This document shows, piece by piece, positions 1-14,925 of a stretch of 64,000 nucleotides of DNA. The stretch's first letter is position 1. Each line of letters starts with the position of its first letter. The notes below the pieces were generated by a model. It was not told the origin of the DNA. It searched no databases and saw only the letters and a program-made list of their open reading frames with translations. Origin of the DNA: an uncultured Candidatus Saccharibacteria bacterium (GTDB lineage: Bacteria; Patescibacteriota; Minisyncoccia; Phycocordibacterales; DSPV01); assembly GCA_964574355.1 (NCBI GenBank), contig CAZNMD010000003.1, positions 5,316-69,315 of the forward strand. The letters run 5' to 3'. The position numbers and the translations under genes were made by a program.

Positions 1-3000
1 TGTGGGCAAAGCCAACAAGTCTTGTCGCGGGCGCACCGTTTATTTCAAAAGCAACAAATTCTGGTGGGGGGCAGGGGTGGTCGTTCGGTTTGCATAACGG
101 TACAGTGAGTAGTCTTAATTTTACGGTGTATGGATTTACGGTAAGTGATCTAACGGTAACAACAGTATCTGGAACTGTTGTTGTAGATGAGTGGGCTCAT
201 TATGTTGTGACGTGGGATGGGACAAATCAGTCGAGCGGTGTGAAGGTTTATAAAAATGGAGCCCTTCTTTCGACTGTTATTTCTCAAAATGGTGGTTCTT
301 CTAGTGCTCAGAGTGATGTTTCGAGAGATTTAAAATTTGCTCGAGAGAGTGGGTATGGCTCGAATTATTTCAATGGAGCCCTTGACGATGTTCGAATTTA
401 TAATCGGGTACTCGCAGAAAGTGATGTTCAAGGATTGTATGGAATGATTCATACTCCAAGTGGTCCACCCTCCGGTGATACGAGCGCACCTTCTGTTCCT
501 TTTAGTGTTTCTGCTCTTCTTGGTTCTCCTTCGGAAGCGACTATTGCATGGAGTGCTTCATCTGACGACGTTGGAGTAGTGGGGTATCGTGTCTATCGAA
601 ATGCAACATTACTTACGAGTGTAACAGGAACTACTTTTTTTGATACGGCCCTCTCTTCCAATACAACGTATACATATACGGTTTCTGCGTATGATGCGGC
701 GGGTAATGTATCTTTGCCTTCAGTTGCGGCAGTGGTGACGACACCGCTTCCGGTTACTCCGACCTATAGTCTTACTGTTTCAAGATCTGGTACAGGAACA
801 GGATCGGTGATTGGTAGTGGCATTACTTGTGGTACAGATTGTAGCGAGTCTCTCGTTGGTGGGAGCAGCGTGTTGTTACAAGCAAATCCGGGATCAGGTT
901 CATCTTTTGGGGGATGGAGTGGGGCGTGTACAGGTACAGGTTCATGTAGCTTTTTGATGAATAGTAATACTACGGTCCAAGCACTTTTTTCTGGAAGCGT
1001 ATCTTCGTCTCTTACTGCTCCTGTGAATCTTCGTGCTCACGAGACACATCAGGACGCTTCGTTGTATGGATTTGAGTTTCGGTGGGATGATCCTTCAAAA
1101 GGATTAATGGATGGATTTTTAGTTGAAAAATCTACGGATGGAGTAATGTACGAATTTGTGGCTACTACTCCCTATAACGATACGCATTACACAATAACGG
1201 TACCGAATGGTACGACTAATTGGCTTCGAATAAAAGCTTTCAAAGGAGGTGTCTATTCGGAACCAACGGCGGCAATGAAATTTACAACCATTATTGCTCC
1301 GTTGTACTACAAGGTCGCAGCAACCGAAAGTGGTAAGGTGCTGCTCACCTGGCGAGACATTTCAACTGATGAAACTGGTTTTATGATTGAGCGCAGTACA
1401 AATGGAAAAGATTTTCAAGTTATTGCCAAAAAACCAACTGCAGATTTTTTAACTCAGTCGTATTATCCAGACAAAATCTTTACTGATGATAATGCAGGAG
1501 CTGGTCTTTTGTTGGGTACAACGTATCACTATCGATTGACTGCCTACAATGCACTTGGTGTGTCTCCCTATCCTGAAGTTTTTGCCGTTGCTCCGGGTAT
1601 GGTTCCTGCGGCACCTTTGGCTACCCTTACTCTTACAAAAGATACAACGAATGGTGTAACTCCAAATACCGTACTTATTCAGGTGACCGATAATTCAAAT
1701 AATGAACAAGGCTTTGTTGCTGAACGGTCAACTGACGGGGTGACATGGACGCTCGCGGGGACCGTGTCTGCTGCGGCGGGCGAAAAGTGGATGTATGATC
1801 GAGGAATTACCCCCGGTGTTACATACCAGTACCGAATCGCTGCCTACAATCAGACGGGACGTTCGTCGTATGTAATGAAAACTATCTCTATACCCGCAGT
1901 TCCTCCTGTTGGAACGCGTTTGTGGTATGTGTCAAAAGGAGCTTTGGGGAGTCCAACGGGTGCGTCTTGGACAAATGCATGGAGAAGTTTAAATGAAATT
2001 AACTGGGTAGCTATAAAGCCAGGAGATACGTTGTATCTTGATGGTGGAACATACAATGAAGTTTTGTATGTATATAGTTCCGGTACAGTTTCTCAGCCGG
2101 TCACGATTCGTCCTGGTTCGGCATCGCCTTCTCCTTCCGGTCATAGTAGTCGTGTTGTTGTAAATGGTATACAAATTCGAGCGAAGAATGTGGTTGTTGA
2201 TGGCGGTTTGCAGCCGTCATTTGTTCCGGTACGAGCCTATGACATCGTTCCAAATATCAATATGGAAGTCACTAATTGTCCAAATTCGTGCGTATTTTCT
2301 TCAGACGCTGAGGGAATTACGGTGCGGTTTCTTAATGTGCATCATCCTGCTGTGTTGGGGGCCAATGGTATTTCTTTGGTAGGGAACAATGCTGATCGCT
2401 TAACTATTTACGGTAATCATATTCACGATATAACTCAAGATGGTATTGGATATCAAACTGGAGTTGGTGCAGGATTTGATTCTATTAAAGTTTCTTTCAA
2501 TCTCATTGAAAGAACAAACGATGATGGTATTGAGGCTGGCGGACATGCAACAATTAACAATAATGTTATTTCGGGAAATGGTGTTGCTGGAATTGGTCAT
2601 CCTGACGGTATGCAGCTGAAGGGTGACTATATAAAAATTTATAATAATTCAATTTATAATCGTTCTCGTTCGTCGTATGTTATTTCGATTGAAACCTATG
2701 GTCCAACATCCGGTCACTGGCATATTTTTAATAACCAACTTTATTTTTCAACATTAGCGGGAGGCAAAGCGGCTACCGCCTCAGAAGGTATTTTCTTGGG
2801 AGCACGTTCCCAGAAAGGGAATATTGTTTCGTTTCAAACAGAACAGGTATGGGACGATATTATTATTGCAAATAATACATTCGTTAATTTGCAAAATAGT
2901 AGTGTTATTGTTTTTGGCACTCGTGTTGAAGAGGTGGCGAAGGTTAGAATTTTACAACTTCTTATTGCTAATAATCTTTCATATAACAATACGGGTACAA

Positions 3001-5345
3001 GTGGTAGTACGATCAGTTTGAAAGGAGACGCAGCTTCTTCTGTGGTTTATGATAATCCGTCCAGTCTTGTTTTTAAGAATAATGTTGTTGCTGGTTCAAA
3101 CACCAACGTGACCTATAAAGGGGTGACGTACCCTACAGTTGAAGCGCTCGATGCGGCTGTTGGTTTTCAAAATAATTCAAGCAACCCTCCTATCTTTGTA
3201 AGTTATGAAGGTGCAGATTTCAGGCCAGCAAATAGTGATACTGTGGTAAAAAATCGTGGTGCAGATTTGTCATCTTTTTTTGCTTTTGATTATGCGAACA
3301 CTCCTCGTCCGGTTGGAACTTCTTGGGATATAGGAGCTTTTGAATCGGTAGGAGATGATGGTGCACCACCTATTCTTGCACCTGTAACTGCCGTTCTTAC
3401 TGTTCAAAAAGGGGGAACAGGAGTGGGTATTGTTACAGGGGTTGGTATTTCTTGCGGAAGTGATTGCTCGCATGTTGCTTCTGTTGGTGCATCAATAACG
3501 CTCACTGCAACACCTCAGGCGGGATCGGTTTTTTCTGGTTGGTCTGGTGGGGGTTGTTCAGGAACGGGGACGTGTAGCGTTTCACTTACAAGTGCACTTT
3601 CTGTTGTTGCTCTGTTTAGTTTACAAGGGGCGTCACCAATTTCGAGTGATTTACTCTTAAAAATTGATTTTGATACAGATACATTTGGCAATAGTTTTGC
3701 CGATCGATCTGGTCGTGGACAGATTGCAACTTGCCAACCCGCGTATTCACTTAATGGACTGATGCATAATCAGTGTCCAGCAAGCTCAATTGGGCCAGAT
3801 GGAAGTAAAGCCGCTCAATTTATAGGTAAAACATGTGTTGTCGATAGTGATTATATTGGTGTGGTGGACAATGCTTTTTTGAAAAATATGCAAAAAGGCA
3901 CAATTTCTGTTTGGGGATATTACGACCCAACCGCTTATGTTGGAGCTCAGCTTCTTGACTCGTGGTCATATGTGCCGGGAACATGGGGACTTGGACGTAA
4001 TTGGAATGCTTCAGGTGATGCCTGGATGCGAACTCGATTTGCTGTTGCCGATACATCAGTTACGACAAGTGGTTTTGGGCCGTATCTATTCTTGTTTCCT
4101 GATAAAGGCCAATCTCGTTGGAGTTTATATACAATTACCTGGGATGGTTCGCGGGTGAAGGGTTACTTTGATGGTGTCCAAATCGCTGATGTTCCCCAGA
4201 TTCTTAATGTAAGTACGAATAGTTTTTATTTGGCATTAGGGGCATTTACTCATTACGAACCAAGAAATGCTTTGGATGAAAGTTGTTCAACTTATTATGG
4301 TGTACCAAAAACTGAACAGCGTATTATGCCTAACAACGGCTTTCTTACGGGCAAGTTGGATGATGTTCGTATTTATAATCGACCACTTTCAGATGAGGAA
4401 GTTGTTCAATTGTATAAAGCGGCAGGAATGTCTCCGGTCTCTTCTAAGTTCGCACCTGGTTCACGAGTTCAAGTTTTGCAAACATTGAATACCCGAAGCG
4501 TTCCAACGACAGCTGGTTTTGCTTCAGGTACACACGGAAAAGGAGCTCTTGGAGTAATTGTTGCTGGTCCGATCGCGGCAGATGGTTATATTTGGTGGCG
4601 TGTTGATTATGATTCGGGTCAAGACGGTTGGTCTGTTGAAGATTTTCTTGGAAGTTCTAGTTCGCCGATACCTCCTAATCTTCCCTTACCTACAACACCA
4701 TCAGTTCCTGAATCACCGGTCCCACCAACACCATCAGTTCCATCGACTCCTCCTTCTGGAGGAGGGGGTGGCGGGGTTACTCCCGCTAGTCCTCAACCTG
4801 AAAAACCTCGTTTGACTACGTCAGTTAGTTCTGGAGGTGGCGGTGGGGCTTCGGTGTCTCCTTCAGGAACAGTTGTGCCGCCAAATACGATTCCTTCGGT
4901 TGCCTCAGAAGCTCGTTCCTCAGATGCTCCGGTGTTTCGCTTTACGCTGCCTCTTTATCGGGGGGCAACAGGCCCAGAGGTAGTTTCTTTGCAAAAAATT
5001 CTTATCTCTGAAAAACTTCTTTCTTCTGATGCGGCTACAGGTCTTTATGGATTACAGACGATGCGAGCGGTTGAATCTTATCAATTACGATATGGTATTG
5101 TTGCCGGCGGTGACGCTGCAACGACCGGATTTGGTTTGGTTGGTAAACAAACACGTACGCACCTTAATACTCAAATAGAGCAGAGAAAGTATGATTCAGT
5201 TTTTGGAGCAAAAACATCTTCAGCTGGTTCGTTAGGAGAGGCGGATCGTATTGCCTCTCTACAAAGACAAATTATCGAATTGCAAAAGATCGTTCAACTT
5301 CTTGTGTTGCAGTTGGCTCAAATGAAATTACCAAAGTCCCAGTAA
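1..5345 (+). CDS. Giant multidomain cell-surface protein, 5'-partial: the reading frame is open from nt 3, so the gene continues upstream of the window. Domain order read from the translation: LamG/concanavalin-like jellyroll (…FNGALDDVRIYNRVL…), FN3 repeats, InlB-type B-repeat (…TCGTDCS…GWSGACTGTGSCS…), more FN3 repeats, right-handed parallel beta-helix (NosD/pectate-lyase-like: …GNHIHDITQDGIGYQTG…INNNVISGNG…), a second InlB B-repeat, a second LamG (…GKLDDVRIYNRPL…), an SH3-like segment, a Pro/Gly-rich linker, a PG_binding_1-like peptidoglycan-binding domain (…LYRGATGPEVVSLQKIL…) and a C-terminal coiled coil.
   Basis: Six-frame ORF 90..5345 (TTG at 90), with no in-frame stop back to nt 3. 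Domain motifs were recognised directly in the translation. Confidence 0.8.
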   Translation, partial: WAKPTSLVAGAPFISKATNSGGGQGWSFGLHNGTVSSLNFTVYGFTVSDLTVTTVSGTVVVDEWAHYVVTWDGTNQSSGVKVYKNGALLSTVISQNGGSSSAQSDVSRDLKFARESGYGSNYFNGALDDVRIYNRVLAESDVQGLYGMIHTPSGPPSGDTSAPSVPFSVSALLGSPSEATIAWSASSDDVGVVGYRVYRNATLLTSVTGTTFFDTALSSNTTYTYTVSAYDAAGNVSLPSVAAVVTTPLPVTPTYSLTVSRSGTGTGSVIGSGITCGTDCSESLVGGSSVLLQANPGSGSSFGGWSGACTGTGSCSFLMNSNTTVQALFSGSVSSSLTAPVNLRAHETHQDASLYGFEFRWDDPSKGLMDGFLVEKSTDGVMYEFVATTPYNDTHYTITVPNGTTNWLRIKAFKGGVYSEPTAAMKFTTIIAPLYYKVAATESGKVLLTWRDISTDETGFMIERSTNGKDFQVIAKKPTADFLTQSYYPDKIFTDDNAGAGLLLGTTYHYRLTAYNALGVSPYPEVFAVAPGMVPAAPLATLTLTKDTTNGVTPNTVLIQVTDNSNNEQGFVAERSTDGVTWTLAGTVSAAAGEKWMYDRGITPGVTYQYRIAAYNQTGRSSYVMKTISIPAVPPVGTRLWYVSKGALGSPTGASWTNAWRSLNEINWVAIKPGDTLYLDGGTYNEVLYVYSSGTVSQPVTIRPGSASPSPSGHSSRVVVNGIQIRAKNVVVDGGLQPSFVPVRAYDIVPNINMEVTNCPNSCVFSSDAEGITVRFLNVHHPAVLGANGISLVGNNADRLTIYGNHIHDITQDGIGYQTGVGAGFDSIKVSFNLIERTNDDGIEAGGHATINNNVISGNGVAGIGHPDGMQLKGDYIKIYNNSIYNRSRSSYVISIETYGPTSGHWHIFNNQLYFSTLAGGKAATASEGIFLGARSQKGNIVSFQTEQVWDDIIIANNTFVNLQNSSVIVFGTRVEEVAKVRILQLLIANNLSYNNTGTSGSTISLKGDAASSVVYDNPSSLVFKNNVVAGSNTNVTYKGVTYPTVEALDAAVGFQNNSSNPPIFVSYEGADFRPANSDTVVKNRGADLSSFFAFDYANTPRPVGTSWDIGAFESVGDDGAPPILAPVTAVLTVQKGGTGVGIVTGVGISCGSDCSHVASVGASITLTATPQAGSVFSGWSGGGCSGTGTCSVSLTSALSVVALFSLQGASPISSDLLLKIDFDTDTFGNSFADRSGRGQIATCQPAYSLNGLMHNQCPASSIGPDGSKAAQFIGKTCVVDSDYIGVVDNAFLKNMQKGTISVWGYYDPTAYVGAQLLDSWSYVPGTWGLGRNWNASGDAWMRTRFAVADTSVTTSGFGPYLFLFPDKGQSRWSLYTITWDGSRVKGYFDGVQIADVPQILNVSTNSFYLALGAFTHYEPRNALDESCSTYYGVPKTEQRIMPNNGFLTGKLDDVRIYNRPLSDEEVVQLYKAAGMSPVSSKFAPGSRVQVLQTLNTRSVPTTAGFASGTHGKGALGVIVAGPIAADGYIWWRVDYDSGQDGWSVEDFLGSSSSPIPPNLPLPTTPSVPESPVPPTPSVPSTPPSGGGGGGVTPASPQPEKPRLTTSVSSGGGGGASVSPSGTVVPPNTIPSVASEARSSDAPVFRFTLPLYRGATGPEVVSLQKILISEKLLSSDAATGLYGLQTMRAVESYQLRYGIVAGGDAATTGFGLVGKQTRTHLNTQIEQRKYDSVFGAKTSSAGSLGEADRIASLQRQIIELQKIVQLLVLQLAQMKLPKSQ

Positions 5346-5437: not shown

Positions 5438-7867
5438 ATGAATAAAGAAGACGCGTTCATTCTTTGGTATAAAGATCTTTCAATTGCCGATGTTGCTTTT
5501 GCGGGCGGTAAAAATGCTGCCCTAGGAGAAATGGTAAGTAATCTTGGAGCAATGGGTATTTCTGTGCCGAACGGATACGCAGTCACCGCAAAAGCCTATC
5601 GTTACTTTCTTGAAGCAACAGGGCTAAAAGATAAAATTGCTCATATTCTTTCTGATTTAAATACAAGTGATATCCAAAACCTCCAAGCAAAAGGGAGAGA
5701 GGTAAGAGAAACTATCTTAGCGGCAACTATCCCGAAAGATCTCGATGATGCGATTCGGGTGGCGTACGCTGAAATGGAAAAGATGTATGGGGTCAATACT
5801 GACGTTGCTGTTCGTTCGTCAGCTACAGCAGAAGATTTGCCCGGAGCATCATTTGCTGGTCAGCAAGAGACTTATTTGAATGTTGTAGGAGCTGACGCTG
5901 TTATGGTTGCAACAAAAAAATGTATTGCGTCTCTGTTTACCGATCGTGCTATTTCTTATCGTGTTGATAAGGGATTTTCGCATACAGATTCAGCGCTTTC
6001 GGTAGGTGTTCAAAAAATGGTTCGTTCAGATATGGGGGCTTCAGGAGTTGCTTTTTCAATTGATACAGAAACAGGTTTTGATAAGGTGGTGGTCATTAAT
6101 GCGTCTTATGGTCTTGGAGAAATGGTGGTGCAAGGGAAAGTAACACCGGATGAATTTACTGTTTTTAAACCAACGCTTCAAGAAGGGTATCGTTCGATTA
6201 TTGCTCGCGATTTGGGGCCAAAAGAAGTAAAGATGATATATGATGGCTCGTCGACGAAAATTATTGATACACCAGACGAAGATCGAAAGCGTTTTAGTTT
6301 AACTGACGATGAGATTTTAAAACTTGCCGATTGGGTAACAAAAATCGAAACCTATTTTTCCAATAAGCATGGACATTATCAACCGATGGATACTGAGTGG
6401 GCAAAAGATGGTATTACCGGAGAGTTGTTTATTGTTCAGGCGCGCCCAGAAACAGTGCACGCGATGAAGGATAAGAACATAATGAAAACGTATCGGTTGA
6501 AAGAGAAAGGGAAAGTTTTGGTCACGGGAACCGCCGTTGGAAGCAAGATCGCAAGTGGTAAGGTCCGCGTTATTAAAGATGCGTCAAAGATAGGTGAGTT
6601 CCAAAAAGGAGAAGTGTTGGTCACAGAAATTACTGATCCTGATTGGGAGCCAATTATGAAAATTGCTTCAGCGATTGTGACTGATAAGGGTGGTCGTACA
6701 TCGCATGCCGCAATTGTGTCACGCGAACTTGGAATTACCTGCGTTGTTGGTACTGAAAAAGCAACTACTGTTCTTCAGACGGGTCAGGATGTTACCGTCG
6801 ATTCTTCGAGTGGTAAAACAGGTTTCATTTATGAGGGGGTTGTGCCATTTGATGTTGTTGAAGAGCGTCTCGATACGATTCCAACAACACGGACAAAAAT
6901 CATGTTGAATATCGGTTCACCAGAAGAAGCGTTTGAAAAATATCAGCTTCCGGTTCAAGGTGTTGGATTAGGACGACTTGAATTTATTATCATGGGCCAT
7001 ATTCAGATTCACCCAAACGCGCTCATTGATTATGAAAAAATAAAGGCTGAAATGGGGAATGATGAGTATAAACAGAAAGTCATTCGAAAGATTGATGAAA
7101 TGGCACCAAATTATCCTGACAAGAGAGACTTTTATGTTGATGAATTAGCCGAAGGAATTGGAAAAATTGCAGCTGCATTTTACCCACATGAAGTAATCAT
7201 TCGTTTTTCTGACTTTAAAACAAATGAGTATAGGACGCTTGTTGGAGGAGAGTTGTATGAACCTCATGAGGAAAATCCAATGATTGGGTGGCGTGGTTCG
7301 TCGCGTTATTACGATCCAAAATTTAAGGAAGCGTTCGGTCTTGAAGTGAAGGCCATGAAGAAGGTTCGCGAGGGTATGGGTCTTAAAAATGTTGTTGGGC
7401 TTATTCCTTTTTGTCGCACGGTAGAGGAGGGACAAAAGGTTGTTGAAACAATTAAAGAATTTGGCCTTGATCGAGCCTCTGATCCTTCATTTAAGTTGTA
7501 CCTTATGTGTGAGATACCTTCGAATGTTATTTTGATTGAGCAATTTTTGGAAATTTTTGATGGTATGTCAATTGGATCAAATGATCTTACCCAGTTAACG
7601 CTTGGTATGGATCGTGATTCTGGTATTGTGTCGCATATTGGTAATGAGCAAAATCCGGCAGTTAAAAAATTAATTCAAGATACAATTTGGAAATGCAAAG
7701 AGCGTGGCAAGTATATTGGGTTATGTGGTCAAGGGCCATCAGATTTTCCTGAGTTTGCGCAATTTCTGGTGGAAAGCGGTATCCAAAGTATGTCACTAAA
7801 TCCAGATACGATTTTGAAAACACTTATTGCGACCGCTGAGACTGAAAAGAGAGTAGGGTTTAGATAG
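5438..7867 (+). CDS. ppsA: Phosphoenolpyruvate synthase (pyruvate, water dikinase).
   Basis: 809 aa. N-terminus MNKEDAFILWY…VAFAGGKNAALGEM. The PEP-utilising mobile domain with its catalytic His is present (GGRTSHAAIVSRELGITCVVG). The C-terminal PEP/pyruvate-binding TIM-barrel region is present. Confidence 0.9.
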   Translation: MNKEDAFILWYKDLSIADVAFAGGKNAALGEMVSNLGAMGISVPNGYAVTAKAYRYFLEATGLKDKIAHILSDLNTSDIQNLQAKGREVRETILAATIPKDLDDAIRVAYAEMEKMYGVNTDVAVRSSATAEDLPGASFAGQQETYLNVVGADAVMVATKKCIASLFTDRAISYRVDKGFSHTDSALSVGVQKMVRSDMGASGVAFSIDTETGFDKVVVINASYGLGEMVVQGKVTPDEFTVFKPTLQEGYRSIIARDLGPKEVKMIYDGSSTKIIDTPDEDRKRFSLTDDEILKLADWVTKIETYFSNKHGHYQPMDTEWAKDGITGELFIVQARPETVHAMKDKNIMKTYRLKEKGKVLVTGTAVGSKIASGKVRVIKDASKIGEFQKGEVLVTEITDPDWEPIMKIASAIVTDKGGRTSHAAIVSRELGITCVVGTEKATTVLQTGQDVTVDSSSGKTGFIYEGVVPFDVVEERLDTIPTTRTKIMLNIGSPEEAFEKYQLPVQGVGLGRLEFIIMGHIQIHPNALIDYEKIKAEMGNDEYKQKVIRKIDEMAPNYPDKRDFYVDELAEGIGKIAAAFYPHEVIIRFSDFKTNEYRTLVGGELYEPHEENPMIGWRGSSRYYDPKFKEAFGLEVKAMKKVREGMGLKNVVGLIPFCRTVEEGQKVVETIKEFGLDRASDPSFKLYLMCEIPSNVILIEQFLEIFDGMSIGSNDLTQLTLGMDRDSGIVSHIGNEQNPAVKKLIQDTIWKCKERGKYIGLCGQGPSDFPEFAQFLVESGIQSMSLNPDTILKTLIATAETEKRVGFR

Positions 7868-7887
7868 TTTATTTTGTTCAAAAACAT

Positions 7888-7920
7888 AAAAACAAGGCCG
7901 TACAAAGGCCTTGTTTTTAT
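7888..7920 (+). terminator. Rho-independent terminator of ppsA.
   Basis: AAAAACAAGGCC-gtacaaa-GGCCTTGTTTTT: a 12-bp perfect stem followed by a T-run. Confidence 0.8.
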
Positions 7921-7948
7921 TGACGTAAGTATATAAATATGTTAATAT
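7920..7948 (+). promoter_or_regulatory. Near-consensus sigma-70 promoter, TTGACG-N17-TAATAT, driving the G+C-rich gene 8042..9409.
   Basis: Hexamers at 7920-7925 and 7943-7948 with a 17-nt spacer, read directly. Confidence 0.55.
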
Positions 7949-8007
7949 AGTCGAAGGTAGTACTCGATGGCACTATTGTGTTGTTCGAGGGGTGGTACAT
8001 CGAAAAC

Positions 8008-8021
8008 GGGGATATATCCCC
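8008..8021. promoter_or_regulatory. Perfect 14-bp palindrome GGGGATATATCCCC between the promoter and the RBS of the 8042 gene. It is a candidate operator.
   Basis: Read directly. It lies 20 nt upstream of a GAAAGG RBS and the GTG start. Confidence 0.4.
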
Positions 8022-8041
8022 ATCGGTAGAAAGGTTACACA

Positions 8042-9409
8042 GTGCACCATTCGAAAATTAAAATTATTGTTCATGAACGTCCTCATTGGGATGAAATCGT
8101 CGGAGTTTGGTTGGCACAAACGTATGGTGGTGGGAAGTATGTCGGCCTCGACAAGGCTGCAATTCGTTTTGTCGAAGAAGATCCTCTCGGTGGGGACAAT
8201 CGGTTTGACTCCGAAGGGTTGTATCCGATCGGTACCGGCAAGGGTCGGTGCGACGATAAGGGTCCGGATGGTAAGCGCAAGGCGGGAAAGTGTTCTGCTT
8301 TGCTTGTTGCCGAAGATCTTGGTGTCGAAAAAAACCAAGAACTCATTCTCCTTCTTGAGGAAACGCTTCATTGCGATACCCAAAAGGGGGTTCGTCTCAC
8401 ACAGCTCGCCGAAGCTTTGAAGTTGATAATGCTCAAGTTCGGTACGGCTGGTCAGGAGTTTTTTTTACAGCACTCGTTGACAGTTGTTGGTGCCATTGTG
8501 GCTCAGTGCGCGAATCGCTACACCGCCGGTCGTGGCGAGAAGGGAGCCCTCGACTTCTTTGAGGGTTTCGTCCGGAACGGAAGGTTTACCGACCAACGAA
8601 TTATCGGGTTTATGCGTAAGCAGCTCCAAATCGGAGCAGCTCATACAGAGTCGGTCACGGAGATCGACTTTGTTCTTCGGGCGATGCAGCGAAATGGTAC
8701 GTCTCTCAAAGATACCACCGAGTTTGCTCGCTTCATTCTCCAACACGTCTATCAGGTGCAGGAACACATTCGTGACCTTTCTCAGGTTATCAAGCCTGAC
8801 AACAAAACTCATCGAGGTCAAAACTCGAGGGAGTTTGTCACTACCGGCTTGTTTGATGATTGTGAGAGGCCGGTTCGTTTCATCATCGTTGATAGCGACG
8901 ATCCGTTTGCTCACCGTGCAACATCGTACCTTCGGTATGATGTTCATGTCATCAGGCAGTCAACGGGCAATGTTCAGGTCTTTGCCAACACATCGAAGGG
9001 TGTCAAACTTCATGTGGTGGCGGCGATGATTCGGTGGCTCGAGCTGCCGAGTGATCAAAAGACTGGATTCCTCGATGAGCTCGAGGACGCCGGAATAATT
9101 GAAGGTGTGTCACACTGGTACTACTTCGTGGAGGCACAGATGCTGTTTAATGGTTCGCAAACTCACACAGGTGTGCGACCGACAGAACTTGCTGGTCAGG
9201 CGATCGTTGATGTTCTTCGCCACGCGTTTCACCCACGTGAAATTGGGAAGTGGAAGGCGTTGCATGGAAAGGGTCGCTTTTCGCGTCAGGTTCGGTGTCC
9301 GGAAAGGTCGGTCAAGTCCAATGTCTCGGTCCAGTCTGCCGGGAAGGATTGGCCGACGGATATCGCCGCTGATCTCGAAAGGATTTGCAGTGGTCTCAAC
9401 GGAGAGTAA
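8042..9409 (+). CDS. Hypothetical 455-aa protein with no recognisable family. It is the G+C-rich 'island A'.
   Basis: Long uninterrupted ORF with a GTG start 7 nt after a GAAAGG RBS. It is visibly richer in GC codons than its neighbours. Several long overlapping ORFs on both strands were judged to be by-products of the GC richness. Confidence 0.6.
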   Translation: MHHSKIKIIVHERPHWDEIVGVWLAQTYGGGKYVGLDKAAIRFVEEDPLGGDNRFDSEGLYPIGTGKGRCDDKGPDGKRKAGKCSALLVAEDLGVEKNQELILLLEETLHCDTQKGVRLTQLAEALKLIMLKFGTAGQEFFLQHSLTVVGAIVAQCANRYTAGRGEKGALDFFEGFVRNGRFTDQRIIGFMRKQLQIGAAHTESVTEIDFVLRAMQRNGTSLKDTTEFARFILQHVYQVQEHIRDLSQVIKPDNKTHRGQNSREFVTTGLFDDCERPVRFIIVDSDDPFAHRATSYLRYDVHVIRQSTGNVQVFANTSKGVKLHVVAAMIRWLELPSDQKTGFLDELEDAGIIEGVSHWYYFVEAQMLFNGSQTHTGVRPTELAGQAIVDVLRHAFHPREIGKWKALHGKGRFSRQVRCPERSVKSNVSVQSAGKDWPTDIAADLERICSGLNGE

Positions 9410-9433
9410 TCTCCACACGTCTTTATGACGATC

Positions 9434-9471
9434 GAGGAGCGTACAGCGATAAGCTGGCGCTCCTTTTTTTA
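9434..9471 (+). terminator. Rho-independent terminator of the 8042..9409 gene.
   Basis: GAGGAGCG…(inner CAGC-gataa-GCTG)…CGCTCCTT followed by TTTTTTT. Confidence 0.7.
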
Positions 9472-9495
9472 TTCAATCAATGATACGATTCGGTT

Positions 9496-10942: not shown

Positions 10943-11710
10943 GTGAATACAACGCCTGCCAAGGACGTACCGGTTGAAGGTGAAGAACAGCAATTCTTGA
11001 ACTATCTACGGTTTACGGTTCAGATAGTTCAAACAATACTGAGTCGTCTACCTCCGCATGTCGAAAAAGATGATTTGCTATCAGTAGGACAGCTTGGTTT
11101 GCTGAAGGCGATTCGGACGTTTGATCCAAGCAAAGGTTCTACCTTCGGTGCGTATGCTCGTCATCGTATTCGCGGGGTAGTCCTCGATGAATTGCGAAAG
11201 ATGGATATCTTTCCTCGTTCGGTTCGCGAGAGAGCTCGAATGGTCGCCGAGGTGGAAGATTGTTTGGTGAATAGGTTGGGTCGGGAACCAACAGAGATGG
11301 AAATGGCGTCAGAGATGGGGCTCGGTCTTGCGGCCTATCGTAAACTGAGATCTGAGATCCAACCTGTAGACTTTTTGTGTCTTGACGATCTACCATCTTG
11401 GTTGAAAAACAACCACTATGATCATGGGCGTCATGATTGTTATGACGCTATTGCCGACCAAAGTCTTCCGCTCGGTGAGGAACTCGAGCGTCGGGATATG
11501 TTGGCGGTGGTTTATCACTCGATCAAGAGTCTTCCTCCAAGACAGCAACAAGTGCTCGCGCTGTATTACGTTGAAGGGTGGACTTTTCGAGAAATTGGAG
11601 AAGCTCTTGGTTTTACTGAGAGCTATGCTTGTATGGTTCACAAAGAGGCAATTGTGACGCTTCGTGAACATTTCCAAAAAGAAGATCGACGCTGTACATT
11701 GGCTGGGTAG
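10943..11710 (+). CDS. RNA polymerase sigma factor of the FliA/WhiG (sigma-28) family.
   Basis: 255 aa. GTG start 6 nt after AAAGGAG. Region 2 …FGAYARHRIRGVVLDELRKMD…. Region 4 …VLALYYVEGWTFREIGEALGFTESYACMVHKEAIVTLR. Confidence 0.8.
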   Translation: MNTTPAKDVPVEGEEQQFLNYLRFTVQIVQTILSRLPPHVEKDDLLSVGQLGLLKAIRTFDPSKGSTFGAYARHRIRGVVLDELRKMDIFPRSVRERARMVAEVEDCLVNRLGREPTEMEMASEMGLGLAAYRKLRSEIQPVDFLCLDDLPSWLKNNHYDHGRHDCYDAIADQSLPLGEELERRDMLAVVYHSIKSLPPRQQQVLALYYVEGWTFREIGEALGFTESYACMVHKEAIVTLREHFQKEDRRCTLAG

Positions 11711-11852: not shown

Positions 11853-12794
11853 CTACGAGCCGCGATTGTAAATGACGACGAGATTTCTCATGGCTTTTTC
11901 TGCGGGTGTTTTACCACGAGCACTTGAGTGCCACATAGCTTCGCCGGTATCTGCGTAGGTGTCACCAAAAGTATCGATTTCATCATTAGCAATCTGACCT
12001 TCAGGGACGCCATGGTTGGCAAATTGCGTCCGAATGATTGCCGGTAGGCAGATTCCCCCGAATGCATTTGGGGCAAGTACACAGTAGTCGCCCAGTCGCT
12101 GGAAGTGCGCAATCAATTTCCGATTGGTGACTCCGTACTTTTGGTCAGTGGGTCGGTGGAAAAAATGTTCTCCACCGATACCGCACGTGATGAACACCTC
12201 AAGGTCTTGTGCGTGTTCGTTCCACTCAAAGAATTTGCACATAATTCCGTCGACAACGCTTTCGTGTGGTCGACTTGGCGTACCTGTTTCCAGGCGTGTT
12301 CGATCAACCAAACAATCTCGTCCAGCGTGTGCGGCGATAACTTTGCCACTAACACGAGATCGAGCAATGATGGTCGGACAATCTGCCGATGCGAGCATCA
12401 TATATTTTCCTCGCGGAATTTCACAACCATCAGCGCTTACGCCGCGGTAGATTTTTACTCCTTTACGTGGAGGCAGAGTAATTTTTTCGTGTGATAGGTC
12501 AATCTGGCCTTGATACACTTCAGTCAGTTCGTTGGGTGTGCAGATACGCGCGTTGAAGTCTGAAGGGCGGGGTGCATAGATCGAAGTTCGATCGCCGCCG
12601 CCAAATAAGGCGTTGATCAAGGAGTACGCCGAGCATTTCGCAACACCCGCGTTGTTTTTGAGTTCGGCAATGCTCCAGTCAGTTTGTCCGTCATTTCGCC
12701 CGCACAAAGTGACTTCAACGGGGCTCGTTCGGGTTCCATCACCAAACAGAGTGAAAACCCGAGTCGGTCTTGCTAATTCGATGTCCGTGTTCAT
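11853..12794 (-). CDS. YfiH/PgeF-like (Cu-oxidase_4 / DUF152) purine-nucleoside-phosphorylase / peptidoglycan-editing-factor family protein. It is the G+C-rich 'island B'.
   Basis: 313 aa. …SADC-PTIIARSRVSGKVIA-AHAGRD… matches the family signature ADC-x15-AHAGWRG with identical spacing. GC-rich codons. Confidence 0.5.
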   Translation of the reverse strand: MNTDIELARPTRVFTLFGDGTRTSPVEVTLCGRNDGQTDWSIAELKNNAGVAKCSAYSLINALFGGGDRTSIYAPRPSDFNARICTPNELTEVYQGQIDLSHEKITLPPRKGVKIYRGVSADGCEIPRGKYMMLASADCPTIIARSRVSGKVIAAHAGRDCLVDRTRLETGTPSRPHESVVDGIMCKFFEWNEHAQDLEVFITCGIGGEHFFHRPTDQKYGVTNRKLIAHFQRLGDYCVLAPNAFGGICLPAIIRTQFANHGVPEGQIANDEIDTFGDTYADTGEAMWHSSARGKTPAEKAMRNLVVIYNRGS

Positions 12795-14244: not shown

Positions 14245-14925
14245 ATGAGTACTCTCTACGTCGTCGCTACGCCTATAGGAAATCTTGAGGATATATCACC
14301 TCGAGCGCTTCGGATTTTGTCTGAAGTCGATGTCATTCTTTGTGAGGATACGCGAGTTACTAGAAAACTGTTATCGCATTTTGGAATTTCTACCAAAACA
14401 ATTTCATACCACGCAAGAACGGAAGTTTTGAAACTTGACTACGTTCTTTCTTTTTTTGAAGAAGGGAAAAATGTTGCACTTGTATCAGATGCCGGTACCC
14501 CAGCAATATCAGATCCGGGGGCAATTTTGGTTAAGGAAGTTCGAAAAAAGTTTCCAGAGGTGAATATTGTGGCTATTCCAGGGCCATCAGCGCTTACCGC
14601 AGCAGTATCAATTGCTGGTCTTTTGGTTTCAGATTTTACATTTCTTGGATTTTTGCCTCATAAAAAGGGTAGAGAGACGTTATTTAAAGAGATTAGAGAG
14701 TCTTCACGAACGATGGTGTTTTACGAGTCTCCCCATCGAATTGAAAAAACGCTTGAATCATTATCGATATATCTCGCTCCTGATCGTACTGTTAGTATTT
14801 GTCGAGAACTGACAAAAATGTATGAAAGTGTTATTTCTGGTAATCCTGATTTTGTAAAAAATCATTTTGCGACACATACAGATCAGGTGAGGGGAGAATT
14901 TGTTGTTATTGTTTCTCCAAAATAA
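14245..14925 (+). CDS. rsmI: 16S rRNA (cytidine1402-2'-O)-methyltransferase, tetrapyrrole-methylase family.
   Basis: MSTLYVVATPIGNLEDISPRALRIL…VILCEDTRVTRKLL. It starts 1 nt after the murC stop. Confidence 0.85.
   Translation: MSTLYVVATPIGNLEDISPRALRILSEVDVILCEDTRVTRKLLSHFGISTKTISYHARTEVLKLDYVLSFFEEGKNVALVSDAGTPAISDPGAILVKEVRKKFPEVNIVAIPGPSALTAAVSIAGLLVSDFTFLGFLPHKKGRETLFKEIRESSRTMVFYESPHRIEKTLESLSIYLAPDRTVSICRELTKMYESVISGNPDFVKNHFATHTDQVRGEFVVIVSPK

Follow-up and report, generated by a model that had tools for sequence, protein, structure and literature searches.

Phosphoesterases of the DHH superfamily include RecJ, NrnA, GdpP/DhhP, and the family II inorganic pyrophosphatases, and autoregulatory translational operators in mRNA leaders are familiar from ribosomal-protein leaders, the thrS operator, and phage coat-protein hairpins. 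These were the closest described systems for a gene cassette in a 64,000-nucleotide stretch of DNA (the window, to which all coordinates refer) from an uncultured Candidatus Saccharibacteria bacterium (contig CAZNMD010000003.1 of assembly GCA_964574355.1). The cassette encodes a protein of 455 amino acids (8042-9409, + strand), and a perfect 14-bp palindrome, GGGGATATATCCCC, lies between its promoter and its ribosome-binding site. An earlier note, made from the sequence alone, had described this unit as an island with a protein of no assignable motif and a repressor operator. The analysis reported here suggests that it is probably a cassette for a DHH-type enzyme, whose mRNA leader carries a gene-specific hairpin that would serve as a control site for translation or mRNA stability.

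The predicted two-lobe fold of the protein matched only members of the DHH superfamily in the PDB. An AlphaFold2 model, for which 56 family sequences were used, reached a predicted local distance difference test score (pLDDT) of 91.9 and a predicted template-modelling score (pTM) of 0.85. The model divides into an N-terminal DHH-like alpha/beta domain (~residues 1-130; 8042-8431, + strand), an insertion of five helices (~residues 131-255; 8432-8806, + strand), a C-terminal DHHA-like alpha/beta domain (~residues 256-410; 8807-9271, + strand), and a low-confidence tail with a terminal helix (9272-9406, + strand). The Foldseek check that the earlier note had suggested returned two meaningful PDB matches, 6MTZ (probability 0.93) and RecJ of S. 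aureus (0.85). For the model of a member of the short form of the family (pLDDT 94.0), all of the top seven matches were DHH-superfamily phosphoesterases, among them 6MTZ (0.99), three family II inorganic pyrophosphatases (0.89-0.92), Borrelia DhhP (0.80), and GdpP (0.51), after which probabilities dropped to 0.21 or below. The best structural match to both models, 6MTZ, is an uncharacterised protein of Helicobacter pylori G27 with 344-347 amino acids, which is close to the length of the short form; it shares ~10% sequence identity, sequence-profile searches did not detect it, and no paper on it turned up in the literature searched.

Residue conservation was counted among 56 long-form members, and the family consensus reads (T)H-x3-H-x-D-E ... 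G-x-G-x-G-R-F-D-E-H ... C-D ... N-G-S-x-T-H. D17 and D112 were found in all 56 members, H11 and R331 in 55, K127 and G371 in 54, N370 in 53, E18 in 51, and H375 in 45. Position 15 is H in 49 and D in five members, position 71 is D in 40 and N in 12, and position 73 is H in 43 and K in 13. The triad-like motif is thus D-E-H in 43/56 members and D71-D72-K73 in the window protein and 12 others, and the second-lobe motif of the window protein is N370-G371-S372-x-T374-H375. I take H-x3-[HD]-x-D, DEH, D112, and NGSxTH as putative counterparts of the DHH motifs and of GGGH in DHHA1, with H or D at position 15 as in DHH motif I. With all of these family residues kept, the window protein looks, from its sequence, like a functional member of the DDK subclade and not like a decayed copy. 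The earlier note had seen a hint of a metal-dependent enzyme in the start of the protein; this was borne out in substance by the invariant or near-invariant H11, H15, D17, and E18 and by the match to the DHH fold, though not for the leading MHH, which is not conserved.

Three observations speak against the assignment to the DHH superfamily. The template-modelling scores of the fold matches were low (0.2-0.36), which fits a hinged two-lobe protein with an insertion and is no proof of the fold, so the assignment rests on the exclusivity of the Foldseek matches and on the motifs. Pfam DHH (PF01368) was seen below threshold in two of the 56 members, with a best E-value of 0.0046, and the window protein has DDK at the position of the canonical DHH triad. 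Pfam DHHA1 and DHHA2 and all NCBIfam models gave no significant match. Taken together, the modelled structure makes it very probable that the 455-amino-acid protein is an enzyme of DHH fold. In contrast to the described DHH enzymes, the family has DEH or DDK in place of the DHH triad, its long form has a ~125-residue helical insertion between the lobes, its short forms add a C-terminal cysteine cluster, and it is almost entirely restricted to Patescibacteria. Because the fold agrees, the sequence models fail, and the DHH triad is absent from the window copy, the family was filed as a new divergent family inside the DHH superfamily, and it is not a member of any named subfamily.

MYG1 (UPF0160), like the family a remote DHH relative, was among the closest known systems. 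The family signature T-H-x-x-P-H-L-D-E-(I/V)-x-A-x-x-L-L presumably resembles the MYG1 signature H-x-G-x-F-H-x-D-E-A-L-A. None of the 56 members matched Pfam UPF0160, even at E ≤ 1. Myg1 is a DHH-motif 3′-5′ RNA exonuclease modelled on RecJ, its activity requires the DHH triad, and a histidine in the C-terminal lobe has been proposed to mark RNA-acting members (PMC6582341). The window protein (D71-D72-K73) lacks the triad needed for Myg1 activity.

Sequence searches with the 455-amino-acid protein against Pfam (E ≤ 1), NCBIfam, PADLOC, and PDB sequences (phmmer) returned no match, in line with the earlier statement that no motif could be assigned, and PDB profile searches gave only spurious matches (designed helical repeats for the helical insertion, and EGFR). 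A word-indexed homologue search recovered only 4-5 proteins (four among 5.8 billion). An exhaustive HMMER search of 1.84 billion cluster representatives recovered 767 clusters at E ≤ 1e-3 and 351 at E ≤ 1e-10, which sets the family size at at least 767 clusters at 50% identity. Nearly all related clusters with organism titles were from Patescibacteria (the candidate phyla radiation, CPR), and named members in public sources were called 'hypothetical' or 'uncharacterized'. In a one-genome-per-species collection 50 loci encoded a relative, nearly all of them in metagenome-assembled genomes of Patescibacteria, from Parcubacteria/Paceibacterota, Taylorbacteria, Nomurabacteria, Nealsonbacteria, Saccharibacteria, and other lineages. 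A metagenome scan added 56 further loci, and a complete 602-kb Kazan-group genome also encodes a family member. No relative was found in the viral contigs and phage genomes searched, and the idea of a mobile or phage gene was rejected on these grounds. The protein hence belongs to a large unnamed family that is almost restricted to Patescibacteria and has no Pfam or NCBIfam model.

The family comes in two forms. Members of the long form (~420-530 amino acids) align across residues 8-410 of the window protein, and those of the short form (~300-370 amino acids) align only to residues ~8-130 and ~275-400; they lack about residues 130-275, so that the central helical segment is largely absent. At the C-terminus, short forms have four clustered cysteines (C-x4-C-x4-C ... 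C) that may be a zinc-binding module. This cluster is absent from the window protein, whose tail carries a conserved VRCPER and the terminal helix.

The anatomy of the cassette was as the earlier note had described it, with every element from the ppsA terminator to the terminator of the unit itself in place. The ppsA gene (5438-7867; PPDK_N, PEP-utilizers, and PEP-utilizers_C domains) is closed by an intrinsic terminator, AAAAACAAGGCC-gtacaaa-GGCCTTGTTTTT (7886-7920, + strand; -19.7 kcal/mol, z = -6.2), which is symmetric and could therefore act in both directions. It has an equivalent hairpin in the related genome L001, where a homologue with 75% identity (P0002) occupies the same slot between ppsA and murD. 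A promoter scan placed a sigma-70-type promoter directly downstream, with a -35 element TTGACG (7920-7925), a 17-nucleotide spacer, and a TG-extended -10 element TAATAT (7943-7948, + strand); it is kept in L001 as TTGACG-N17-TAAGAT. The 5′ end of the mRNA would lie near 7955.

Downstream of this presumptive 5′ end, the leader contains an upstream stem-loop, HP1 (7963-7989, + strand), whose outer helix CUCGA (7963-7967)/UCGAG (7985-7989) encloses an inner hairpin GCAC-uauu-GUGU (7970-7981, + strand). A mostly unpaired, A/C-rich linker, GGUACAUCGAAAAC (7994-8007, + strand), follows, the terminal C or CC of which abuts the palindrome (8008-8021, + strand). As RNA the palindrome forms the hairpin GGGGA-uaua-UCCCC, hereafter HP2, and it is identical in L001. 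The Shine-Dalgarno (SD) sequence GAAAGG (8029-8034, + strand) lies 7 nucleotides from the GTG start codon and within a box, (A)CAGAAAGG, that is conserved in long-form leaders. GTG 8042 is the earliest possible start after an in-frame stop, which rules out a coding role of the palindrome in that frame. The gene for the DHH-superfamily phosphoesterase-like protein (long form) was defined by the open reading frame (ORF) list, its homologues, and the predicted fold. A small hairpin, ACGUC-uuuau-GACGU (9418-9430, + strand), directly 3′ of the stop codon is kept in L001, as is the cassette terminator after it, GGAGCGuaCAGC-gauaa-GCUGgCGCUCC followed by UUUUUUU (9434-9472, stem 9434-9465, + strand; -26 kcal/mol, z = -4.9; -25.5 kcal/mol in L001). 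A consensus terminator scanner missed this terminator because its stem is interrupted. These findings support reading 7920-9472 as a monocistronic cassette that is complete in itself, with promoter, ribosome-binding site, and terminator, all of them conserved in the L001 orthologue.

An upstream ORF of 20 codons (7968-8029, + strand) runs through the leader from ATG 7968 to a TAG immediately ahead of the SD. A leader peptide was rejected because the ATG is missing from L001 (CGATGGCAC versus CGGTAGCGC) and the upstream ORF has no SD.

Comparing leaders with one another showed how strongly this region is conserved. The stretch GGTACnTCGAAAACGGGGATATATCCCCAT has a single difference in 30 positions between the window and L001, while four-fold degenerate sites of the flanking genes are just 37-54% identical. 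The linker differs at one of 14 positions in L001 and is recognisable in L002 and L003 as GGGUACAUCGAAAAAAC and GGGUUCAUCGACAAC, and A/C-rich linkers with an ..ACC end precede HP2 across the family. The homologues at L002 and L003 (48% identical) have the same leader layout with a different sequence, namely a strong promoter, GGGTAG, an outer helix with an inner hairpin, a linker GGGUACAUCGA(A/C)n, a hairpin, (A)UUACAGAAAGG, and the start codon. L003 has GGAUUC/GAAUCC and L002 has GGAU/AUCC in place of the outer helix of HP1, and its inner hairpin becomes GCG/CGC in L001 and GACACU/AGUGUC in L002, so that 7/13 predicted pairs of HP1 are changed on both sides among the four sequences from two clades that were compared. 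An upstream hairpin is present in most other long-form leaders, and HP1 is not alignable across the family.

At the place of the palindrome, L002 and L003 carry GGAGG-uauu-CCUCC or GGAGG-uuua-CCUCC, and a GC-rich hairpin of 5 bp was found at the equivalent place in both long and short forms, with ACAGAAAGG or AAGGAG downstream. Further variants of HP2 were GGAGC-guuuu-GCUCC, GGGGC-uuacua-GCCCC, GAGGC-uuaucg-GCCUC, CGGAC-gaaa-GUCCG, AGAGC-gguua-GCUCU, GGACC-augg-GGUCC, and GGGGG-uauu-CCCCC. Loop length ranges from 3 to 9 nucleotides across homologues, and HP2 ends 8-27 nucleotides before the start codon. The distance from the -10 element to HP2 is 59 nucleotides in the window and 46-90 nucleotides at the other long-form loci, HP2 lies 50-70 nucleotides from the predicted 5′ end, and the 5′ untranslated region of HP1, A/C-rich linker, and HP2 measures ~90 nucleotides in the window and ~77-130 nucleotides in the family. 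Family leaders were enriched for the promoter elements TTGACA, TGCTAT, and TATAAT, with strong promoters 46-90 nucleotides before the hairpin, and for ACAGAA and GAAAGG.

The hexamer GTTCTT was enriched in family leaders as well (15/66 versus 8/312 control upstream regions, p = 1.6e-7), at -102 to -30 from the start codons (for example L005 ~2888 and L011 ~2945, and also L074, L021, and L047). Often it makes up the 5′ side of the upstream hairpin (GUUCU..AGAAC); in the window only GTTCGAG is present, at 7983-7989.

The specificity of HP2 was then expressed in numbers. A hairpin with a stem of at least 5 bp, at least four G-C pairs, a loop of 3-9 nucleotides, and an end 8-27 nucleotides before the start was found at 30/64 non-redundant family starts, compared with 32/314 other SD-preceded ORF starts on the same contigs, and none of the 32 control hairpins had a GGRGC-type arm. 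Among 15 non-redundant long-form leaders, 12 had a hairpin of at least 5 bp, one had a hairpin of 4 bp, and two had none or a variant. A descriptor combining a GGRGN-like arm, a complementary arm, a loop of 3-9 nucleotides, and an SD within 18 nucleotides was run over 540 kb on both strands. It matched 118 times, with 24 matches in the 60-nucleotide family leaders that make up 0.5% of the space (0.46 expected), an enrichment of about 50-fold. A covariance model (R1) seeded with nine GGAGC-type hairpins gave 12 matches at E < 1e-3, all of them family leaders, with noise starting at ~16 bits; it was too sequence-specific to reach the GGGGA variant of the window. In an alignment of 30 hairpins, 5/5 stem pairs were changed on both sides and 95% of cells were paired, as compared with 40-55% in slid registers, and the observed value was reached in none of 500 shuffles.

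Other results count against a conserved RNA element. The 30 hairpins had been selected for pairing, which makes the 95% partly circular. Unguided RNAalifold on a sequence-only alignment of the 15 long-form leaders found three pairs at the position of HP2, with negligible energy, a weakness that stems from MAFFT leader alignments mis-registering the arms. Single-sequence folding z-scores of the leaders were unremarkable (-0.6 to -2.1), about half of the family leaders, mostly of the short form, have no recognisable HP2, and HP2 is small (5 bp), with a conserved stem sequence that is also compatible with a pair of DNA half-sites. Pairing supported by covariation within ~35 nucleotides of the start was thus found for HP2, subject to the selection of the hairpins and to the weak unguided RNAalifold result. 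The main weight of the argument for the leader falls on its enrichment, its specificity, its conserved position, and the replacements seen in orthologues.

Known classes of leader element were compared with HP2 in turn. The predicted unpaired probability of the SD was 0.79 in the window, and its family median was 0.55 versus 0.37 in controls (p = 0.003). In short forms, 2 nucleotides separate the 3′ arm of HP2 from GGAG. An SD-masking switch was not supported, since the SD is predicted to be exposed and in short forms the 3′ arm is too near for the two to pair. What follows HP2 is AUCGGUAG and no U-run, and HP2 was absent from the terminator scan, giving no sign of an attenuator or intrinsic terminator. 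Rfam 15 had no match at gathering score anywhere in the window, and within 7800-9600 matches were at chance level alone (E 0.9-8.5); the literature searched described no comparable RNA motif from CPR. Resemblance to a tRNA arm or to 16S helix 45 was rejected because loop length and closing pairs differ. Like the translational operators named at the outset, HP2 is short and gene-specific, lies in the ribosome footprint beside the SD, and precedes a gene that has a promoter of its own but no dedicated regulator gene. It differs from them in that it excludes the SD and the start codon, is not in Rfam, and showed no likeness to a tRNA or rRNA substrate.

The earlier note had called the unit an island, which its history does not bear out. 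Amino acid identity between the window and L001 is 96.8% for ppsA, 75.2% for the 455-amino-acid ORF, 77.3% for murD, and 83.4% for murC, and a syntenic orthologue with murD-like divergence indicates that the gene has been resident since the two genomes split. The note was right that the ORF is GC-rich: its GC content is 0.513 against 0.415 in the flanks, more than in any other of the window's 36 long ORFs, and GC at third codon positions (GC3) is 0.53 compared with 0.32 in ppsA and murD. The family gene is GC-richer than its flanks at 52/56 loci from many CPR lineages, with a mean excess of 7.2 points. Four-fold degenerate sites of the gene are 54% identical between the window and L001, so that synonymous sites have largely turned over, and their GC content is 0.46 and 0.48 in the two genomes (0.24-0.37 in neighbours). 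High four-fold GC in both genomes despite this turnover means that the bias is maintained and is not a leftover of transfer. A recent genomic island was rejected on the strength of the syntenic orthologue, the murD-like divergence, and the family-wide, maintained GC excess, and one possibility is that this excess reflects selection on the mRNA.

Strong full-length homologues of ordinary housekeeping function at the same locus in relatives had been named as grounds for doubting the earlier proposal. Full-length homology at that locus was indeed found in the relative, and an ordinary housekeeping function was not established. No conserved operon partner or regulator emerged from the family loci, where 109 flanking ORFs match 103 different Pfam families with no recurrent regulator. 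The family gene is best seen as a stand-alone cassette, the neighbourhood of which is otherwise not conserved.

How the cassette might work can be outlined from these parts. By analogy with other DHH enzymes, the two lobes would close over a divalent-metal site, which H11, H15, D17, E18, D71, D72, K73, and D112 may form, facing the N-G-S-x-T-H of the second lobe. The reaction would be hydrolysis of a phosphoester or phosphoanhydride bond in a nucleotide-derived substrate, for which short RNA, 3′-phosphoadenosine 5′-phosphate (pAp), a linear or cyclic dinucleotide, and inorganic pyrophosphate are candidates. The gene would be transcribed from its own strong promoter into an mRNA with HP1, the A/C-rich linker, HP2, and an exposed SD in its untranslated region, and HP2 would fall within the segment covered by the initiating 30S subunit. 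Since HP2 lies in this footprint, is conserved in sequence as well as in pairing between distant CPR lineages, and is specific to the gene in any genomic context, it is most likely the recognition site of a trans-acting factor, which may compete with the ribosome or control decay of the mRNA. Relatives of the DHH-type enzyme act on RNA or nucleotides, which makes the encoded enzyme the most economical candidate binder, and its binding would then block ribosome loading in an autoregulatory manner. Recognition of HP2 by a protein, autoregulation included, is put forward tentatively and stands somewhat short of probable.

One alternative is that the leader serves high, unregulated expression, in which case the structured untranslated region would protect the mRNA from 5′-dependent decay, the linker would act as a ribosome standby or enhancer site, and HP2 would insulate the SD and keep it exposed, with a near-consensus promoter and raised GC3 adding to the effect. 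The enrichment of strong consensus promoters and SD boxes in family leaders would suit this idea, as would the greater predicted exposure of the SD relative to control genes, the lack of any evident alternative pairing that masks the SD, and a family-wide excess of GC and GC3 that could reflect selection on the mRNA. However, a generic stabiliser needs neither a conserved stem (GGRGC/GCYCC) nor conserved flanks (..ACC and ACAGAAAGG) over phylum-level distances, and it would be expected on other highly expressed genes, whereas the element is essentially confined to this family (24 matches versus 0.46 expected). HP2 is, moreover, 50-70 nucleotides away from the predicted 5′ end and so no 5′-terminal protective hairpin. 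A purely constitutive role was hence regarded as rather unlikely.

A small-molecule riboswitch, in which the two-hairpin leader senses a nucleotide-derived metabolite such as a dinucleotide, pAp, or a cyclic dinucleotide and tunes translation, appeared less likely still. Genes for second-messenger phosphodiesterases are often under riboswitch control. In keeping with such a switch, the untranslated region is gene-specific, conserved, and structured; it directly precedes the SD of an enzyme gene that has a promoter of its own and lacks a neighbouring protein regulator, and the conserved single-stranded linker and the loops could make tertiary contacts. The conserved core is tiny, however, with 5 bp and a loop of 3-9 nucleotides, and beyond it the family leaders showed neither an alignable HP1 nor a conserved internal loop or junction. 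An alternative fold that sequesters the SD is not evident, and Rfam gave no match even at permissive thresholds.

The earlier note had taken the palindrome for the DNA operator of a dimeric repressor, placed between promoter and ribosome-binding site, and had proposed a search for further copies. The palindrome occurs once in exact form in the 64 kb, where 0.13 matches with up to two mismatches are expected by chance, and a search of these 64 kb found no second site. A lone copy with two mismatches, GAGGATATATCACC (14287-14300), lies inside the N-terminal coding region (..PIGNLEDISPRAL..) of the gene after murC, the L001 counterpart of which matches TP_methylase; it was set aside as a coding coincidence, and with it a regulon within the window. 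Perfect palindromy, uniqueness above chance, and full conservation in the L001 orthologue are what an operator would show, and inverted half-sites (GGAGC..GCTCC) recur at homologous positions, where coevolution of homodimer half-sites could mimic covariation. Even so, a DNA operator is highly improbable, given that the covarying arms are spaced 3-9 bp apart, which is incompatible with a fixed dimer geometry, that the loops are often not palindromic (uauu, uuua, and uau in L002, L003, and L009), that stem positions which are not Watson-Crick are mostly sense-strand G-T (~4, versus one A-A and one C-A), which pair in RNA and not in DNA, that the site keeps a near-constant distance to the SD and start and a variable one to the promoter (46-90 nucleotides downstream of the -10 element, far beyond where operators usually lie), and that no cognate regulator gene is conserved beside the family. 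HP2 therefore likely acts as RNA, judging from these sequence comparisons.

Patescibacteria account for a large share of bacterial diversity and have tiny genomes, a dependence on hosts for nucleotides, and many unannotated genes, and to my knowledge very few regulatory RNAs have been described in them. For the family itself, a 'hypothetical protein' becomes a defined and widespread family with a DHH fold assignment and a short list of candidate substrates. The leader RNA is compact, gene-specific, and absent from Rfam, and it would be one of few CPR regulatory RNAs if confirmed. The boldest version of the proposal, in which the leader is an undescribed, Patescibacteria-specific cis-regulatory RNA (a riboswitch or the autoregulatory operator of an RNA-acting enzyme) that controls an undescribed DHH-type family, is unlikely to hold in full; if true, leader and enzyme would point to a regulated step, so far unrecognised, in the nucleotide or RNA turnover or the signalling of CPR bacteria. 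The family is kept even in a minimal genome of 602 kb and is kept unusually GC-rich, and a GC excess that persists through synonymous turnover is a further clue to selection on the mRNA itself. This overturns no paradigm and provides a solid, concrete lead in an under-studied group.

Several features around the cassette differ between the window and L001. Upstream of ppsA the window has an ORF of 1751 amino acids (90-5345, + strand) that probably encodes a large surface protein, given its Laminin_G_3, fn3, and InlB B-repeat-like domains; in its place L001 has genes for a pyruvate kinase and a DUF4147/MOFRL (glycerate-kinase-like) protein. Between murD and murC lie a sigma-70-family gene (10943-11710, + strand; GC 0.477) and an ORF of 313 amino acids without a Pfam match (11853-12794, - strand; GC 0.505). 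The murD-murC slot of L001 holds a NUDIX gene instead, and the window thus has a second GC-rich, lineage-specific insertion near the cassette. L001 in turn has ~430 extra bases between the cassette terminator and murD (8541-8932 of L001), with two small called ORFs (63 and 67 amino acids), and these extra bases include a near-copy of the palindrome, GGGGATTATATCCC, at ~8908-8922.

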